Below are positions 1-42,925 of a stretch of DNA of 64,000 bases, piece by piece (positions within the stretch are counted from its first letter, which is position 1; every line of letters begins with the position of its first letter). The translations under genes were made by a program, and so were the position numbers. The notes beneath the pieces are model-generated. The model was given only the letters and a program-made list of their open reading frames with translations, had not been told where the DNA came from and did no database searches. The stretch comes from a phage, in the NCBI GenBank assembly GCA_012343875.1, contig GCA_012343875.1_3924.1; one strand, given 5' to 3'.

Positions 1-395
1 GCATAAATTGCATCACAGATATCACGAAAATCATGATTTGCCAAATTACGTTGCAACCAAGTGGCAAAGAAATCAGCGATTGCAAAATTAGCATCATACT
101 CGACAGATAGCCACACTTTAACAGCAAATCTAAACATTTTCAAATCTAACTCTTTATTCATTACCTTTGATTTGCCTAACATGTCTGCCATTTCATATTG
201 TGCACCATCTAGCGTGATACCTGCTGCAACGTCAGCCAATGAGTTTTTTACACTTTCAACGTCTAAGATAACACTTTGAATCTTCCCGATAATATTGTGC
301 AATGTCTCATCAGGTGCTGATGATGTAATAACATTAATCCGGTTGACAGTCAAACGTGCTTTTAAGATTGATAACTCACGATTATTAATAGCCAT
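1..395 (-). CDS. hypothetical early protein, 3' end truncated by window edge
   Basis: Reverse-strand frame open from ATG at 395-393 down to position 1 (about 131 codons, begins MAINNRELSILKARL); start preceded by the conserved cassette at 396-480; absent from the ORF track because no stop lies inside the window. Confidence 0.5.
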   Translation of the reverse strand, partial: MAINNRELSILKARLTVNRINVITSSAPDETLHNIIGKIQSVILDVESVKNSLADVAAGITLDGAQYEMADMLGKSKVMNKELDLKMFRFAVKVWLSVEYDANFAIADFFATWLQRNLANHDFRDICDAIY

Positions 396-480
396 TTTTG
401 AATCTCCAATTTAGGATTTAGTGGTAAAGCTCTTTATCTGGGGCTTACTTTATCGAACTATAAGCCCCCTGTAAAGTACT
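396..480 (-). promoter_or_regulatory. conserved intercistronic cassette type A (palindrome AAAGTACTTT, hairpin GGGGCTTA..TAAGCCCC, RBS GGAGA)
   Basis: Near-identical about 85-bp element also at 1464-1551 and 1810-1897, always between the stop of one small minus-strand gene and the ATG of the next. Confidence 0.6.
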
Positions 481-753
481 TTATACTAAATGCAGTTTTT
501 TACCTTTTACTATGATGTAACTTGATGCGCTATTACTGCATACATCTTGATAAATTCTGCGCAAACGTCCTTCATAGTATACTTTCCAACTAGTTGGAAT
601 CTTTTTCCCGTATCCTGTAGCAGTTTTTTGGAGTCCTGCTACTTGCCAATCTAAGATATGTTGTTCAGCTTGTAAGTCTTCAAAGTGCATGACACCATCT
701 ACATAGTGACGTAGTGTGACATTTAAAGTGCGACCGTTGTTAGTAGTATACAT
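481..753 (-). CDS. hypothetical small early protein (90 aa)
   Basis: ORF on coding strand of the leftward block; start preceded by type B cassette with GGAGA RBS. Confidence 0.5.
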   Translation of the reverse strand: MYTTNNGRTLNVTLRHYVDGVMHFEDLQAEQHILDWQVAGLQKTATGYGKKIPTSWKVYYEGRLRRIYQDVCSNSASSYIIVKGKKLHLV

Positions 754-840
754 TTTAGAATCTCCAGTTTAGGACTTTATTTAGTGGGGAAGGTCATTCC
801 TTCCCGTTGATGTGTAATTTAATCTATCTAAAAATCAGTG
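754..840 (-). promoter_or_regulatory. conserved intercistronic cassette type B (hairpin GGGAAGG..CCTTCCC, CACTAAAT box, RBS GGAGA)
   Basis: Shares the CCCCACTAAAT..CCTAAA.TGGAGATTC..AAAATG core with type A cassettes; second copy at 2279-2340. Confidence 0.55.
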
Positions 841-1173
841 TCAAGAATTTTGTTTTCGTTTGCTCAACTCTTGAACAATTACAGCATGATAGTCTTTCAA
901 GTCACTGATGTTTAAAGCATTTATCAGAGAATTATAATCATCAACTAACTGAAAATCATCTTTGAAGATGTCACTTATCTGATAGGTTTTGGCTTTATAT
1001 CTGAAGCTCATCTCTAGCCGCTTTATTTGCTCATCACTGAGACGTCCTAGAAAGCTTTCTACAAGGTTATTGCTAACCTGCTGTGTGATTGCCTTATTTG
1101 CTAAATTATAGGCTTTATATGCCTTATATAGCGCGAAAATGGCAATGATTGCAGTGATACCAGTCATTAACAT
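841..1173 (-). CDS. hypothetical membrane-anchored protein (110 aa)
   Basis: N-terminal hydrophobic stretch MLMTGITAIIAIFALY; 4-codon overlap with the downstream gene. Confidence 0.5.
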   Translation of the reverse strand: MLMTGITAIIAIFALYKAYKAYNLANKAITQQVSNNLVESFLGRLSDEQIKRLEMSFRYKAKTYQISDIFKDDFQLVDDYNSLINALNISDLKDYHAVIVQELSKRKQNS

Positions 1174-1463
1174 GGTGTTTCCTCTTTACGTGATACTTTG
1201 CCACTTACAGTTATCTCATAAGATTCTAATAAATCGCTTTTAGACTTTACAGGGCTTTTAAAAGTATCATCGTAAATATTGACTTGCAATACAGGTTTTT
1301 TATACTCCCTGCAACTATTCCATAAGCAAATCACTACACGACGGCCTTTGATTTTTCCGTGTAACCATTCCATAACATCATGACTATTCCTTGATGTTTC
1401 AATGAAATCAATTTTATTAAGTAACTTGCTTAGATTTTCACGGACTTTATTTGATAGTTTCAT
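1167..1463 (-). CDS. hypothetical small early protein (98 aa)
   Basis: ORF preceded by type A cassette and GGAGA RBS. Confidence 0.5.
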   Translation of the reverse strand: MKLSNKVRENLSKLLNKIDFIETSRNSHDVMEWLHGKIKGRRVVICLWNSCREYKKPVLQVNIYDDTFKSPVKSKSDLLESYEITVSGKVSRKEETPC

Positions 1464-1551
1464 TTTTGAATCTCCAGTTTAGGATTTAGTGGTAAAGCTC
1501 TTTATCTGGGGCTTAAGATATCAACTTTTAAGCCCCCTGTAAAGTACTTTA
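1464..1551 (-). promoter_or_regulatory. conserved intercistronic cassette type A
   Basis: Copy of the 396-480 element; hairpin stem GGGGCTTAA..TTAAGCCCC with a different loop. Confidence 0.6.
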
Positions 1552-1809
1552 TCAGATTAAATTGCCAGTTAATGATAAGTGCATTTTATAACCTTTTTTA
1601 GTGAAAACATTCACTTTACCGAGTGATTTTACACCTTTAAAAAGGTTGTTTGAACTGCGTTTTAGGGTTAACTGTTTATCAACCTTTACGCCCCATCTTA
1701 CAGCAGATTGTTTTCCGTTGTCAACCACTTTTCCGCATAACTTTTTAGCCATAATGCGAGCGTCATCACGAGTTTTTGCAGGAATTACAACGTTTTTGAT
1801 AATAGCCAT
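1552..1809 (-). CDS. hypothetical small basic protein (85 aa)
   Basis: ORF preceded by type A cassette. Confidence 0.5.
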   Translation of the reverse strand: MAIIKNVVIPAKTRDDARIMAKKLCGKVVDNGKQSAVRWGVKVDKQLTLKRSSNNLFKGVKSLGKVNVFTKKGYKMHLSLTGNLI

Positions 1810-1897
1810 TTTTGAATCTCCAATTTAGGATTTAGTGGTAAAGCTCTTTATCTGGGGCTTACTTTATCGAACTATAAGCCCCCTGTAAAGTACTTTA
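1810..1897 (-). promoter_or_regulatory. conserved intercistronic cassette type A
   Basis: Copy of the 396-480 element. Confidence 0.6.
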
Positions 1898-2278
1898 TCA
1901 GTTAATTTTGAATATTGTCACATAACCATCACTACCAATTATTTGAGACGCTCCAGCTTTCTCCACTGAATAGCCCATATTTTCAAGATGGTAAACAGCA
2001 TCATCATAACCATATGCGCCACCTTGATAACGTCTCTTATTGCAGCTTATCAGGTTTTTACCACGTCCTGCCAGTGCATTTAGTACAGCTTTTTCACTCG
2101 ATAGTGTACCATCTAGCATGGTTGCAGTGTAGTGGTTGATTTTGTTCCCGTTGATATCATACTTGAAATTGAACGAGTGAACAACGATAACGTTACCTTT
2201 GAAATTCTCATCAAGTGCCTTCTCCAGTGCGTTGCGAAAGTTGTCTTTATTGATGAATTTAGGTGCACGATATGCCAT
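1898..2278 (-). CDS. hypothetical early protein (126 aa)
   Basis: First gene downstream of the sigma70-like promoter at 2345-2373; preceded by type B cassette. Confidence 0.5.
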   Translation of the reverse strand: MAYRAPKFINKDNFRNALEKALDENFKGNVIVVHSFNFKYDINGNKINHYTATMLDGTLSSEKAVLNALAGRGKNLISCNKRRYQGGAYGYDDAVYHLENMGYSVEKAGASQIIGSDGYVTIFKIN

Positions 2279-2340
2279 TTTAGAGTCTCCTAGTTTAAGG
2301 TTAGTTATTTAGTGGGGAAGGTTATTCCCTCTCCGTTGAT
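2279..2340 (-). promoter_or_regulatory. conserved cassette type B (5' leader copy)
   Basis: GGAGAGGGAATAACCTTCCCCACTAAAT..AGGAGACTCTAAAATG on the minus strand. Confidence 0.5.
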
Positions 2341-2344
2341 GCAA

Positions 2345-2373
2345 ATATTAGATAACCCTAGCCAGAGAGTCAA
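2345..2373 (-). promoter_or_regulatory. sigma70-like promoter for the leftward small-gene array
   Basis: Minus strand reads TTGACT - 17 nt - TAATAT (-35 at 2368-2373, -10 at 2345-2350). Confidence 0.55.
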
Positions 2374-2494
2374 GAAAAATTTTAAAAATATTTTTGCAAA
2401 AACTGTAATGAAACGTGCGCGCACAACTACTATAAAACATAAAACTGGTCAAGAATTATTTTTGAATCCGCTACAAATTTTTCTCTTGACTTTT

Positions 2495-2535
2495 GGGGAG
2501 AGGGGGAGTAAGAGGGGGAGAGGGGCTGGGCTGGC
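2495..2535 (+). repeat. polypurine tract with four or more G-runs (G-quadruplex-capable)
   Basis: GGGGAGAGGGGGAGTAAGAGGGGGAGAGGGGCTGGGCTGG, highly atypical in this AT-rich genome. Confidence 0.6.
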
Positions 2536-2550
2536 TGTCTATAAAAACCT

Positions 2551-2729
2551 ACCTGCACAATTCTAAAATGATTTTTCTTGCCCGACCTGAGCGGGGTCTG
2601 CACGTTTTGAAAATGAAAAAGCTCTTTGGAGATTACCTGCACAGTTTGAAAATGAATTTTCTCTTTGGAGTTCAAAATTTTCTCTACAGATTTCTCTATA
2701 GAAATATACCTGCACAATCCTGAAATGAA
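2551..2729 (+). repeat. four dispersed direct repeats of a 22-bp motif ACCTGCACA.TT.TGAAAATGA
   Basis: Copies begin at 2551, 2596, 2635 and 2708, with irregular spacing, in a 520-bp non-coding gap. Confidence 0.6.
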
Positions 2730-2801
2730 AAAGCCCTCCTTACCTGAAAAATTTACCAGATAAGAAAGGCTCAGTCTATTATGAATATTCTACAGAGTTT
2801 C

Positions 2802-3587
2802 TTAGTTCTTTGCGTCTAAGAAGGTAACTTCTGGTGAAGAGAAGATTGCCTCGATATCCTCATCAGTTCTTGCATAGATATAAGCTTCTGCATCACTACC
2901 AAATGTTACAGCAATTCTGTGATTGCTCTTCGACAGGTGGGTAACTAGAGCGTTACTTAGAGACATCTTTTCAACCGGAGGGTTACTTTGATGTATCTTA
3001 CCTTTTCTTCGTCTGAAGAGGGTAACTGCATTATCCGTGAACACTGCTACACCTGCAAAGTATTCTGGCTCACAGTAGTTTTTCCAACCTGAGAGTAACT
3101 TGTGGTACATATCACCTTCATAGACATACAGATAGACATCTACACTCTTCATCACCTGATTGGTGATAACTGTGACAGCTTGAGGGTCAAGTCCACCGAT
3201 ACCTGCACCAATCATAGGTAGACCGACTTTCTTCAACTGATTCACTTCACAGTATCTGTTAAGTTGCTTCAAAGATGACTCTAAAGCACTGTATCGGGCA
3301 TCTTTACCAGTCTTAAGCTGAGTGTAAAGGTTAGCTATACGACCTTGTTTTAAGCGTGCTACAGAGAAATTACCTAGTAAATTCTCACAGGGTTTGTGAC
3401 CTATACCACCTGCATAGAGATAAACTTCTGTATCGGTCTCATATGCTTTTGGGTAAAGTTTAGAAATCTTGTCAGCGATACCTGCACCCATTAAATTCAT
3501 ACAGTTGCAACCGTGACCGATGATGTCAAACTTACCTTTATCAAATGCGGCAAAGATATCACCATTGATTATTTTTACAATACCCAT
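2802..3587 (-). CDS. macro-domain protein (TARG1/DarG-type ADP-ribose binding or hydrolase domain) with C-terminal domain of unknown function
   Basis: N-terminal GDIF..(H)GCNCMNLMGAGIA matches the TARG1/DarG-type macro signature (H-C-x5-MGAGIA) as I recall it. Confidence 0.6.
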   Translation of the reverse strand: MGIVKIINGDIFAAFDKGKFDIIGHGCNCMNLMGAGIADKISKLYPKAYETDTEVYLYAGGIGHKPCENLLGNFSVARLKQGRIANLYTQLKTGKDARYSALESSLKQLNRYCEVNQLKKVGLPMIGAGIGGLDPQAVTVITNQVMKSVDVYLYVYEGDMYHKLLSGWKNYCEPEYFAGVAVFTDNAVTLFRRRKGKIHQSNPPVEKMSLSNALVTHLSKSNHRIAVTFGSDAEAYIYARTDEDIEAIFSSPEVTFLDAKN

Positions 3588-5151: not shown

Positions 5152-5180
5152 ATATTATTCTTGACTGTAATAGTTGACAA
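5152..5180 (-). promoter_or_regulatory. sigma70-like promoter abutting the hairpin (TTGTCA - 17 nt - TAATAT)
   Basis: -35 at 5175-5180 and -10 at 5152-5157 on the minus strand; -10 ends 4 nt before the hairpin. Confidence 0.4.
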
Positions 5181-8612: not shown

Positions 8613-8671
8613 TGGTTCTCCTGTTTAGTTTATTGTGACAACAATTATACAGCACTCTGCACAAAATACAA

Positions 8672-9901: not shown

Positions 9902-12268
9902 TTAATCGTAAACTGTTGTACCTTCTGGAACACATTTTACATCAAAGCCTAAGAACTTACTCACTTCGATGGGTGACACTTTATTCCAATCTAAATGAGA
10001 AAGCAAGAAGTTTTCTTGTTTTCTTTTTGAAAGGTAGTTTGTCACCTTAATGACCATGCGGTCACCAGCTTTCTTAATTTTCTTGTACAGTTTTGTATCA
10101 TTGTCAAGGCATTCTTTCAAAGTTTGCAATCTACTAATAGTGTAAGTGTATGCAAACGGTGCGGCAACGTATTGGATTTTACCAAACATAGCCTCTACAG
10201 CCTCTTCATTACCTTCTAGGAAGATAGTTTTGCTAGTATCTCGTGAATAGCAATAGCCACGAGAAATCTTCCTGTTATTGAATGTAAAGTTTCTGGCAAT
10301 AATCCAACTGCTTGTAAGGTCAAGAACACCATTCATGTAGATGCGTGTCATATACCTGTTATGATTAATCCAATGAACATCAGTTAAGCTGTCGTTCAAG
10401 AGTTTCTCATCTACTTCAATCCAGTCTTCTGGTATCTTTTTCCAATTTGCTTTTCGGAAAACATAGACTGTCTTACCTGTAACATTAGCAACTGACTTAG
10501 CTACATCTTCTGGAGATGAGCAAAAACATTCACCATCAACTGTGTCACCGACTGCCTTAATGTAAAGCTGAGGTTCTTCAATTGTATCAAAGTCCTCTGA
10601 AACCTCTTTATAGGAAGCTACACCTTCTGCTGGAACAGCTTTCCAGAGTTTTACAACACCCCTTACAGCTTCTTTACGCTGGTAATGGTGTTCCTTATCA
10701 GACATCTTCACAATCTTTAACAAGCTTTTATCAAGTTTGTGCAGATTGATTAAGTCATCTAGCTCTTTCTCTGTAGAGAATACAAAGACAATACCATTGT
10801 ATCTGTGAAACAGATTTGACTCACTGGCGTAGTCTCGACATGCACCACGCAAAATTTGATTGCGTCCTACAGTCTTCTCAGTACCGTTTTTATTGCGACG
10901 GTCATTAATCACGAACAAAAACTGTTCAATTTGGCTTTTACGCATTGCACCAAAGATATTGAACATACTTGCCTCTTGAGTGTAGGAAAGTGCTGTTGCA
11001 CGAATCTTACTCTCTAAAGAGTTGAACTTGACATAAGCAACTGGGTCATAAAGATAATCTACTTTAGGGATATTGTTCCCGTTCCTATCAACCTTAATAT
11101 TGCCTTTACCGTCACGTTCATAAATGACTGAGCCGTCTTCTGCGTAGATAATTCCACGACGAATGTTTAACAATTCTTCTTCCAGAGAATCAAGCTTAAC
11201 GCCTCCCCACTCTAGCTTTGGACACACAGCATTAAACATCTCTCGTGAGTTCAAACGTAACTCTGCATAAGCCTGTGCAGCATCCATGAGTGTAGGTTGG
11301 CTATTAACTTTCTTGATAACATCCTTTGTAATTGCTTCAGTTATCTTTTTGGTAGCCTCGATGATAACATTTTTTGTCGTATCATTCATCTGCAATGCTT
11401 CACGAGAAGCTGCTATAGCAACTGAACCAATAGGCATGTAGATGTTTACAAGGTCTACGCTCCTACGGAAAAACTCTGGCAAGACTTTGAAGAAATCATC
11501 ACCAAGTAATGCTTCCATGTTCACTGGATAGGCAATATTACCCATCACCACATTAAACTCTGTCCTGTTACCACTAGAACGCCAGCTTTGCTTATGAATC
11601 ATGGCATCATAAACACCTTCTTCACGGGCAATGACGTTCATATCTGCTAATACATCGTCGTACTCAATATTACTTTCTGGTTTTACAGTGAAGTATGAGT
11701 ACACATTTCCAGCTTCTTCAAAGAACTTTGAGATACGGTGGTCAGCAACTGCCACACGTACAGCTAAACCATTTGGTTCTTTTGTTGGGTTAGTGGTCAG
11801 ATTAGTTACTTGAGGGATACCATTCTCAAGATAAACAGAGTACTTATTAACAACACCACCAACATAGCTAGATACTGTGAATGACTGAGCAATTGCAAAT
11901 GGGGATTTTGAGCCGATACCCATTGCACCAATGTAGTCATTAGAGTCATTCTTCGTAGAAGCCCCGTAGTTTAGGTACAAAGTCATAACTTTATCATGAG
12001 TCAATCCAGTTCCAAAATCACGAACTTCAAAGTAAGGCTCAAAACGAGTAGGTAAATGCACATGGAACGGGATGTTCTCTTTTCCAGCTTCTTTCTGAGC
12101 ATCTACTGCGTTACATGACAGTTCACGAATCACTGCCCTTTCTTTAAAGGTATATACACCAGAACTCAAAAGGCTGAACATCTCAGGTGTCATTGTAATC
12201 TGTGCTTGAGACGTCTCTAAAGAAGTTGAACTCTTAATCACTTCTGCGTGGTCATTTACCATGCGCAT
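9902..12268 (-). CDS. rIIA: rIIA-like protein (GHKL/Bergerat-fold ATPase N-terminal domain)
   Basis: AVIRELSCNAVDAQ and GAMGIGSKSPFA match the histidine-kinase-like ATPase motifs of T4 rIIA as I recall them. Confidence 0.7.
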   Translation of the reverse strand: MRMVNDHAEVIKSSTSLETSQAQITMTPEMFSLLSSGVYTFKERAVIRELSCNAVDAQKEAGKENIPFHVHLPTRFEPYFEVRDFGTGLTHDKVMTLYLNYGASTKNDSNDYIGAMGIGSKSPFAIAQSFTVSSYVGGVVNKYSVYLENGIPQVTNLTTNPTKEPNGLAVRVAVADHRISKFFEEAGNVYSYFTVKPESNIEYDDVLADMNVIAREEGVYDAMIHKQSWRSSGNRTEFNVVMGNIAYPVNMEALLGDDFFKVLPEFFRRSVDLVNIYMPIGSVAIAASREALQMNDTTKNVIIEATKKITEAITKDVIKKVNSQPTLMDAAQAYAELRLNSREMFNAVCPKLEWGGVKLDSLEEELLNIRRGIIYAEDGSVIYERDGKGNIKVDRNGNNIPKVDYLYDPVAYVKFNSLESKIRATALSYTQEASMFNIFGAMRKSQIEQFLFVINDRRNKNGTEKTVGRNQILRGACRDYASESNLFHRYNGIVFVFSTEKELDDLINLHKLDKSLLKIVKMSDKEHHYQRKEAVRGVVKLWKAVPAEGVASYKEVSEDFDTIEEPQLYIKAVGDTVDGECFCSSPEDVAKSVANVTGKTVYVFRKANWKKIPEDWIEVDEKLLNDSLTDVHWINHNRYMTRIYMNGVLDLTSSWIIARNFTFNNRKISRGYCYSRDTSKTIFLEGNEEAVEAMFGKIQYVAAPFAYTYTISRLQTLKECLDNDTKLYKKIKKAGDRMVIKVTNYLSKRKQENFLLSHLDWNKVSPIEVSKFLGFDVKCVPEGTTVYD

Positions 12269-12296: not shown

Positions 12297-12473
12297 TTAC
12301 TTATTAAACATTTTACCAGAACCACCACACATAGGGCAACAACCTGCTCTTGTATACCCTTCTCCATTACAGTAGTCACACTTCTTGTGTTCTGCAAAGT
12401 ACTTACAAAGAAGGTAAACAAGTACTGCTACACTACCAAGTGACAGTAAAATTTCTACCCAATATGCTTGCAT
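12297..12473 (-). CDS. small membrane Cys-rich protein (58 aa), not in ORF track
   Basis: ATG at 12473-12471 with GAGGTG RBS; product MQAYWVEILLSLGSVAVLVYLLCKYFAEHKKCDYCNGEGYTRAGCCPMCGGSGKMFNK (TM helix + CxxC..CCPMCGG). Confidence 0.35.
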   Translation of the reverse strand: MQAYWVEILLSLGSVAVLVYLLCKYFAEHKKCDYCNGEGYTRAGCCPMCGGSGKMFNK

Positions 12474-12790
12474 GACTCACCTCTCATGTTTTTGTAAAGG
12501 ATAAAGCTTCTGTCATGGACGATACTTGTAGATACTGCAAAGTTACTTTCAAGCATCTGTTTGTTTGGATTGTAGAAGCTTTCTTTAAACTCGTCAAGTG
12601 CAAATTGGTGATTGTCTGGAAGACCTTTTACACACACCTTTATTGTGATTGCTGCTGCAATCTTCCCAGTCAGTTCTTCTTTAGCTGCTACTAAGATTTT
12701 GTTGAGGAACTTATGACCATTTTCAGGCTTCTTGATGTTCTCCCAACGCTCTTCTAAGACAATGTTGATGTTCATCTCTTTGATTTTCAT
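12455..12790 (-). CDS. hypothetical protein (111 aa)
   Basis: Co-directional ORF directly downstream of the promoter-hairpin-RBS element at 12806-12860. Confidence 0.4.
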   Translation of the reverse strand: MKIKEMNINIVLEERWENIKKPENGHKFLNKILVAAKEELTGKIAAAITIKVCVKGLPDNHQFALDEFKESFYNPNKQMLESNFAVSTSIVHDRSFILYKNMRGESCKHIG

Positions 12791-42885: not shown

Positions 42886-42925
42886 ACAAAAAAGGCTCCT
42901 TTTTACGGGAGCCTTAAAATTTTAT
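42886..42925. terminator. bidirectional intrinsic terminator between convergent blocks
   Basis: AAGGCTCC-tttttacg-GGAGCCTT hairpin flanked by A-run upstream and T-rich run downstream. Confidence 0.6.

Follow-up and report, generated by a model that had tools for sequence, protein, structure and literature searches.

Composite promoter and stem-loop cassettes, probably of the PeSL type, among the variable early genes of a Felix-O1-like phage

Organisation of the early-gene array

An array of small early genes, and the repeated elements by which these genes are preceded, were analysed at one end of a phage DNA of 64,000 nucleotides (nt) (GenBank assembly GCA_012343875.1, contig GCA_012343875.1_3924.1; the whole stretch is hereafter called the window). 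Comparison with related genomes suggests that the elements are probably composite cassettes of the promoter-early stem-loop (PeSL) type. The window was assigned to Felixounavirus, i.e. to a Felix-O1-like myovirus. It is matched by 256 phage records, and the top megablast match is Escherichia phage radambza with 95% identity. The array is encoded on the minus strand, downstream of a block of rIIA/rIIB, lysis and macro-domain genes, from which it is separated by a non-coding stretch of about 520 base pairs (bp). Five cassettes were recognised in it, all on the minus strand, three of type A (A1, A2, A3) and two of type B (B1, B2).

Six open reading frames (ORFs) of the minus strand make up the array. 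They encode 126 amino acids (aa) (1898..2278, PHROG 4495), 85 aa (1552..1809, PHROG 5089), 98 aa (1167..1463, PHROG 4401), 110 aa (841..1173, PHROG 4375), 90 aa (481..753, PHROG 3436) and, in the case of the last ORF, which is cut by the window edge, the N-terminal 131 aa (3..395, PHROG 4327) of a protein of 134 aa in relatives. All six belong to PHROG families and are therefore considered as real genes; the function of each of these families is not known, and no Pfam match was obtained for any of the six small proteins. The 85-aa ORF is missing in radambza and in Felix O1, the indel being bounded by A1 and A2. The 98-aa and 110-aa ORFs share 7 nt at 1173-1167 (ATGTTAATGA), which suggests translational coupling, and the 110-aa product, whose starting segment is hydrophobic, is probably a membrane protein. 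The 110-aa ORF has no cassette of its own: the claim of the original prediction, made from the window only, that six ORFs each lie behind a cassette is thus valid for the other five. The stop codon TGA (843-841) of this ORF is contained in the -35 hexamer TTGACA of B2.

In Felix O1, analysis by reverse transcription polymerase chain reaction placed the array ORFs 16, 20, 21 and 22 at 5 min after infection, and ORFs 17, 19 and 23 later, at 25 min (PMC3185647). The same paper states that it is not known how transcription proceeds around or past the terminators (PMC3185647). The view of the locus as a variable array of small early genes was supported, as all genes belong to uncharacterised PHROGs, the gene content differs among genomes and several of the Felix O1 homologues peak at 5 min.

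Sequence of the cassette repeats

The cassettes span the region from the stop codon of the upstream gene to the Shine-Dalgarno (SD) sequence and start codon of the next gene. A1 (1807..1900) begins with the TGA that ends the 126-aa ORF (1900-1898) and reaches the ATG of the 85-aa ORF (1809-1807), with the SD motif GGAG at 1821-1818. A2 (1461..1554) extends from a TGA at 1554-1552 to the ATG of the 98-aa ORF (1463-1461; SD at 1475-1472), and A3 (393..483) from a TAA at 483-481 to the ATG (395-393; SD at 407-404) of the ORF of at least 131 aa running off the window. B1 (2276..2373), the first cassette of the array, ends in the ATG of the 126-aa ORF (2278-2276), and B2 (751..844) in the ATG of the 90-aa ORF (753-751; SD at 765-762).

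The presence of three type A and two type B repeats, as originally described, was clearly confirmed by motif counts. As types A and B have gaps of different length in the box common to them, CACTAAAT..GGAGA, this box was searched with a variable gap. It was detected 5 times in 64 kb, always within 1-2400, while 0.09 occurrences are expected. The 5' part of type A, AAAGTACTTTACAGGGGGCTTA, occurs 3 times versus 0.00 expected. A stretch of 99 nt (386-484 and 1800-1898) is the same in A1 and A3 (100% identity), and A2 is 86% identical to both of them. The identity between A1 and A3 includes the first 10 coding bases (ATGGCTATTA; 386-395 and 1800-1809), so that the 85-aa protein and the product of the ORF cut by the window edge (at least 131 aa) both start with Met-Ala-Ile. 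Recombination junctions may therefore reach into the first codons. Further details of the earlier description had to be corrected. The perfect palindrome AAAGTACTTT, proposed to be part of each cassette, was found in the three type A copies only and is not kept as a palindrome in relatives, where AAAGTGCTTT, AAAGTCCTTT, AAATTGCTTT or AAAGAGCTTT are present. The statement that stems are kept while loops differ applies to type A, in which the loop of A2 is unlike that of A1 and A3. The hairpin of type B is a different one at a different position.

Predicted promoters of both cassette types

For type A, 54 distinct copies from 11 genomes of four genera (Felixounavirus, Suspvirus, Mooglevirus and Erwinia phages of Kolesnikvirus) were compared. 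In the window, a promoter scan detected TTTACA-17-TAAAGT in A1 (-35 at 1889-1884, -10 at 1866-1861) and A3 (475-470 and 452-447), and TTTACA-17-TATCTT with a preceding TGn in A2 (1543-1538 and 1520-1515). CTTTACA is invariant in all 54 copies, and the spacer measures 17 nt in 53/54 of them and 18 nt in the remaining one. In a subtype shorter by 1 nt, the base was lost downstream of the -10 hexamer and the spacer length is kept. Nine different -10 hexamers were found, all of them of the form TAnnnT, i.e. with invariant positions 1, 2 and 6 in a loop which otherwise varies, and TGn precedes the hexamer in 27 of the 54 copies. The invariant T1 and A2 in a variable loop, together with the invariant unpaired CA of TTTACA, are explained by a sigma70 promoter and not by an RNA helix. 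From this conservation, type A cassettes appear to contain a sigma70-type promoter, with predicted start sites at A1853 (A1), A1507 (A2) and A439 (A3), that is at the A of AGATAAAG, 7-8 nt after the -10. The spacer had been judged too short for a full promoter; this is contradicted by two sigma70-type hexamers at 17-nt spacing in every cassette.

In type B, the -35 and -10 hexamers are 17 nt apart. An invariant TCAAC is located 5 nt past the -10 and precedes a G+C hairpin, after which come the leader, GGAG and ATG. Comparison of 51 distinct copies from 11 genomes showed a spacer of 17 nt in 51/51, the spacer sequences being unrelated among copies. The -35 hexamer is mostly TTGACA, TTGCAA, TTGACT or TTGACG, with the weaker TAGACA or TTGATT in five copies, and the -10 hexamer is TAAATT, TAAAGT, TAGTAT or TAATAT, with TAGAGT occurring once. 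B1 displays TTGACT at 2373-2368, TAATAT at 2350-2345 and TCAAC at 2339-2335, with a predicted start at about A2337. In B2, TTGACA is located at 844-839, TAAATT at 821-816 and TCAAC at 810-806, with a predicted start at about A808. The hairpin in the 5' untranslated region (2334-2314 in B1; GGGAAGG..CCTTCCC at 805-787 in B2) starts directly after AAC, which corresponds to +4 if transcription begins at the first A. A total of 23 distinct hairpin sequences with the same start position were found, and this indicates that the structure and not the sequence is conserved; their mean energy is -12.0 kcal/mol compared to -2.9 kcal/mol for shuffled sequences. A stem-loop this near to the 5' end is an arrangement known to stabilise E. 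coli mRNAs.

Judged by its hexamers, TTGACA-17-TAAATT of B2 (844-816) is an unambiguous predicted promoter inside the supposed operon. The proposal of one operon transcribed from the promoter at 2345-2373 is not supported, given this further predicted type B promoter and the putative type A promoters in between.

The type A hairpin is a predicted RNA structure

RNAfold predicted the same structure in the three type A copies of the window (1897-1839 in A1, 1551-1493 in A2 and 483-425 in A3). From its base to its tip, 6 bp and 5 bp separated by a 1x1 mismatch are followed by a 3x3 internal loop and then by 9 bp under a loop of 11 nt. With about 59 nt and about 20 bp, this hairpin is longer than the GC stem noticed earlier. 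Its energy is -25 to -26 kcal/mol (z -4.0 to -4.5), and 0/200 shuffled sequences were as stable. In the alignment of the 54 sequences, 98.1% of the cells are paired, versus 32-58% when the partners were slid. Compensatory changes were detected at positions 13-64 (GC 41, UA 9, AU 1, GU 2) and 26-51 (GC 46, UA 8 in Erwinia copies), and also at 9-68. U·G pairs occupy two positions in 38/54 and 45/54 copies. As a wobble U·G would be A·C on the other strand, the selected structure is that of the sense-strand RNA, and the frequent T·G positions likewise ruled out a DNA cruciform. In the lower helix, CTTTA of the -35 region pairs with TAAAG of the AGATAAAGAGCTTTAC box, and it is because of this pairing that the box is conserved as far as the Erwinia phages. 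On the evidence of covariation, the type A hairpin is a selected RNA structure. Its 5' arm lies upstream of the predicted start, so that only RNA arriving from upstream can fold it.

The arms of the hairpin could also be read at the level of DNA. Two 12-nt quasi-palindromes TAAAGnnCTTTA, one over the -35 and the other at +4 to +15, would then be operators for a dimeric regulator, for instance an early-gene repressor of the kind controlling anti-defence loci, and the outer helix would be a by-product. This explanation agrees with the self-complementary frame AAAGnnCTTT of both arms, with helix pairs 16-20/57-61, which never vary, and with the location of the boxes over the -35 and just past the start, which is typical of repressors. 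The substitutions found in relatives, however, break the symmetry within a box and keep the complementarity between boxes (G13→T with C64→A; G13→A with C64→T), the T·G positions act as RNA wobble pairs, and the perfect palindrome AAAGTACTTT is not kept in relatives. Regulation by such operators is considered as very improbable. A palindromic operator AAAGTACTTT/TAAAGnnCTTTA was rejected, since the pairing between arms is kept and the symmetry of the boxes is lost.

No U-tract was found after either hairpin, in agreement with the original prediction: downstream of the stem lies AGAUAAAG in type A and CACUAAAU in type B, and the terminator scan called neither hairpin. A canonical intrinsic terminator was ruled out on this ground. 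The intercistronic position of the type A hairpin and the missing U-tract make a role at the RNA level likely, in the processing, stability or insulation of upstream transcripts. The interrupted duplex of about 20 bp with its internal loop (6 + 5 + 9 bp) has the geometry of RNase III sites of the T7 type. From this geometry, an RNase III-type site at the type A hairpin is a serious sub-hypothesis, possible rather than probable.

The two helices (about 9 and 11 bp) around the internal loop resemble the RNase III sites of T7 early genes. This resemblance favours an explanation in which the cassettes are purely post-transcriptional intercistronic RNA elements, devoted to RNase III/RNase E processing, stability or translational control, in one operon transcribed from 2373-2345 and with no functional type A promoter. 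A long imperfect hairpin with covariation and U·G pairs, strongly stable and without U-tract, would be expected from such elements, and the type A hexamers are only moderate matches to the consensus. It was found difficult to reconcile with this explanation that -10 positions 1, 2 and 6 are invariant in a variable loop, with TGn in half of the copies; that the unpaired CA of TTTACA is invariant; that the spacer stays at 17 nt in nearly all copies despite an adjoining 1-nt indel; and that a type B promoter lies in the middle of the operon. Elements acting on RNA exclusively are therefore regarded as unlikely. The earlier proposal of intercistronic RNA elements is right in so far as a covarying sense-RNA hairpin lies between the cistrons, and incomplete in that the cassettes look like promoters too.

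Modularity of the array and presumed recombination

The map of gene families in 11 genomes revealed that single genes are present, absent or replaced between cassettes; in the Erwinia phages the gene order of the array is different. Two families (f15 and f17 in the clustering of this analysis) are preceded by type A in one genome and by type B in another. When the window was aligned to radambza, UAB_Phi87, ASO1B and Felix O1 by local BLAST, the segment borders were mostly located at or within cassettes, namely at 1807/1563 and, among those seen with ASO1B, at 2272, 1896, 1458/1552 and 750/782. With Felix O1, a border was found at 2407 in the non-coding stretch just upstream of B1. The indel between the window and radambza comprises the 85-aa gene plus one cassette (346 bp), and two segments overlap on a single radambza cassette. 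This cassette, located between the 126-aa and 98-aa genes, is a chimera with the 5' part and loop of A1 and the 3' part and leader of A2. In UAB_Phi87, A2 matches two cassettes which flank an extra 170-aa gene. For both A1 and A2, the most similar cassette of another genome precedes a different gene (97.9% identity, versus 92.7-93.7% at the orthologous position).

These data also bear on an explanation without any recombination role, in which the hairpins are transcription terminators and the repeats are relics of tandem duplications of a gene with its upstream region. The G+C-rich stems are of the terminator kind. In the GenBank record of ASO1B, the type B promoter is annotated and the type B hairpin is labelled as a WebGeSTer terminator (type A carries no annotation), and PeSL stem-loops were able to terminate transcription in reporter assays (PMC2839356). 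The missing U-tracts and the silent terminator scan stand in opposition to this. Moreover, the flanking genes are mutually unrelated, so that gene duplication does not explain the repeats, and neither chimeric cassettes nor the same gene behind different cassette types are in line with such relics. Altogether, terminators left over from duplication are quite unlikely.

Distribution and earlier descriptions

Type A was detected in 288 phage records at 1,415 places, and type B in 251 records at 1,134 places. The matching records are nearly all from Escherichia, Salmonella, Shigella, Citrobacter or Erwinia phages or from Felixounavirus, with a few odd-named ones, and all the matching records that were fetched belong to Ounavirinae. 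No match of type A was obtained in 5,426 complete E. coli genomes, by which a host origin of type A was ruled out. A search of Rfam with positions 1-3000 did not return any family at an E-value of 1 or better.

In the genome paper of Felix O1, direct repeats of 57 bp and 39 bp were reported with no function assigned (PMC3185647); they correspond to types A and B, respectively. Apart from this note on direct repeats, earlier accounts of the cassettes in the searched literature were limited to generic promoter predictions. In this literature, PeSLs are described only for T4-like phages, and no PeSL-like cassettes were found for Felix-O1-like phages.

Other elements in the window and in relatives

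Four further composites of promoter and stem-loop were identified on the minus strand of the same early region, at 9896-9867, 5180-5133, 6934-6887 and 12860-12813. In the first one (TTGACA-A-GGGGCTT-CAA-AGCCCC-T-TAGAAT), the stem-loop is located inside the spacer. In those at 5180, 6934 and 12860, GGCTCC(TTCG)GGAGCC and TTTTT follow 3-4 nt after the -10, forming a true terminator with the 5' arm before the start site. Two variants of the cassette are present in Erwinia phage SunLIRen (about 12150-12203 and 12455-12507). In one, TTGACA and an 18-nt spacer are followed by the -10 TAAAAT, which serves as the loop of GAGGGG/CCCCTC; the second, GGGGTTAC..GACTAT AACCCC GTCGAAAC, has the inner stem without the lower helix.

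The non-coding stretch of about 520 bp upstream of B1 contains, at 2430-2760 on the minus strand, four copies in the same sense of a motif of about 30 nt, AAGrGmwTTTTCATTTTCAAAnYGTGCAGrTA. Their GTGCAG cores are located at 2716, 2643, 2604 and 2559, and a C-rich tract CCAGCCCAGCCCCTCTCCCCCTCTTACTCCCCCTCTCCCC follows the motifs. Felixounavirus, Suspvirus and Mooglevirus have all four copies at the same place and in the same sense; this is not the case for the Erwinia phages. A similar copy follows a terminator near 8663. Iterons or an origin, binding sites of a regulator, or a phage-specific promoter are possible explanations for these motifs. Finally, convergent genes are separated at 42894-42913 by a hairpin (GGCTCC..GGAGCC) that resembles a bidirectional terminator, T-tracts being present on both strands.

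Comparison with known systems

PeSLs are known from the T4-type phages RB49/phi1, PST and nt-1 (Arbiol et al., 2010, PMC2839356; Comeau et al., 2014, PMC4122927). Like PeSLs, the cassettes of the window are intergenic in a variable region of small ORFs of unknown function, here downstream of a macro-domain gene; they start at the upstream stop codon in A/T-rich DNA, display sigma70-type -35 and -10 boxes and end in a Shine-Dalgarno sequence and ATG. The GGGG..CCCC stem-loop of PeSLs is found in the spacer between the two boxes, across the -10 or shortly after it, and a stable G+C stem-loop is located at the promoter here too. Several positional subclasses occur within one genome, and on our reading of the stem-loops they would match exactly those described for PeSLs. 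Indel and replacement junctions between close relatives are located in the cassettes in both systems. The differences are that the present cassettes belong to Ounavirinae and not to T4-like phages, that they show no sequence similarity to T4-type cassettes, and that type A has a second, lower helix by which the -35 region pairs with +4 to +15, giving an interrupted and covarying duplex of about 20 bp. The definition of PeSLs came with experimental promoter and terminator activity (PMC2839356). Mini-circles, formed when neighbouring cassettes recombine, are a further feature of the PeSL type.

The RNase III sites R0.3, R0.5, R1, R1.1 and R1.3 of T7 are located between early genes. With type A they share the long imperfect hairpin, the internal loop, the missing U-tract and the position between small early genes; after cleavage, the upstream mRNA would keep a protective hairpin. 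The T7 sites, however, are not known to contain a promoter, and transcription of the T7 early region as one operon starts from three upstream promoters. The leader of ompA is an example of a 5'-terminal stem-loop acting as mRNA stabiliser. The type B hairpin, at about 3 nt from the predicted 5' end, occupies a position that would protect against 5'-end-dependent decay; in contrast to ompA, the start site is a prediction, and copies of the hairpin precede many unrelated genes. Lambdoid morons and integron cassettes resemble the present array in that single genes travel with their own expression signals, so that accessory genes are gained and lost as modules. Morons are not known to have conserved repeats at their borders, and integron cassettes make use of attC and an integrase, whereas homologous recombination between the cassettes is presumed here.

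Interpretation

The anatomy of the cassettes, the conservation of hexamers and spacing across the family, the covariation of the RNA helix and the occurrence of indel borders in the cassettes are results obtained at the level of the sequence. They are probably best accounted for by PeSL-type composite cassettes. In each cassette, a promoter of the host sigma70 type would be accompanied by A/T-rich DNA, by a stem-loop rich in G+C and by a standardised leader containing the ribosome-binding site GGAG. In type A, the promoter would be embedded in the hairpin, with the -35 in the lower helix, the spacer and -10 in the upper stem and loop, and the predicted start on the 3' side of the internal loop. 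RNA initiated at a type A cassette would thus be devoid of the 5' arm and have an open leader, and RNA derived from upstream would form the complete hairpin, at the 3' end of the preceding cistron. In this position, the hairpin would most likely be an attenuator, an exonuclease barrier or an RNase III-type processing site, and insulate neighbouring genes. In type B, a stronger promoter would be followed by a 5'-terminal stem-loop at about +4 of its own mRNA. As the cassettes share 40-100 nt of near-identical sequence, they would also serve as homology for recombination by which the genes between them are inserted, deleted and swapped. The array appears to be a string of autonomous modules, each made of a host-type promoter, an RNA stem-loop and a standard ribosome-binding leader, and not one operon. 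Comparative sequence analysis predicts primary 5' ends inside every cassette.

A number of points weigh against these PeSL-type cassettes. The type A hexamers match just 9/12 consensus positions, and a simple scan returned 40 promoter sites of the 9/12 type in 8 kb versus 24 expected. Since such matches are common, the scan alone is weak, and the case for the type A promoter rests on conservation and not on the quality of the match. TTTACA and the T at -10 position 6 are also part of the helices, and their invariance is possibly in part structural. We infer from sequence the activity of the promoters and their start sites, those of type A included, as well as the effect of the hairpins on RNA and the mechanism of recombination; in the literature on Felix-O1-like phages, no transcriptome or start-site map was found. 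As the hairpins differ from canonical intrinsic terminators by the missing U-tract, attenuation is not assured. Within a genome, the cassettes have a mean identity of 0.85; between genomes, it is 0.85 for cassettes of different genes and 0.88 for those of the same gene. Cassettes of one genome are thus not clearly more alike than those of different genomes, and the values give no clear sign of ongoing homogenisation. Indel borders at the cassettes would also be expected if the cassettes were simply the sole non-coding DNA.

An extension of the PeSL-type cassette, which we regard as doubtful, is that type A is a dual-entry module, acting as a sigma70 promoter on DNA and as an RNase III-type hairpin in RNA coming from upstream. 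Cleavage in the 3' side of the internal loop, within A-G-A at 1853-1851, 1507-1505 and 439-437, would then create the same 5' end as initiation. If true, every gene would receive the same leader whatever the origin of transcription, and each upstream mRNA would end in a protective hairpin. Each gene would thus be a context-independent unit, freely movable by recombination.

Felix-O1-like phages are widely used in typing, biocontrol and therapy of Salmonella and E. coli, and hundreds of genomes are available, but their transcription signals are essentially uncharacterised. The cassettes may offer ready-made insertion points for engineering. Their recognition would provide a testable transcription map of the early accessory region and an explanation for its variable gene content. 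It would also extend the idea of PeSLs, i.e. of regulatory cassettes doubling as recombination linkers, beyond the T4-like phages, and suggests a general solution for plug-and-play accessory genes in virulent phages, likely including genes for host takeover and anti-defence.

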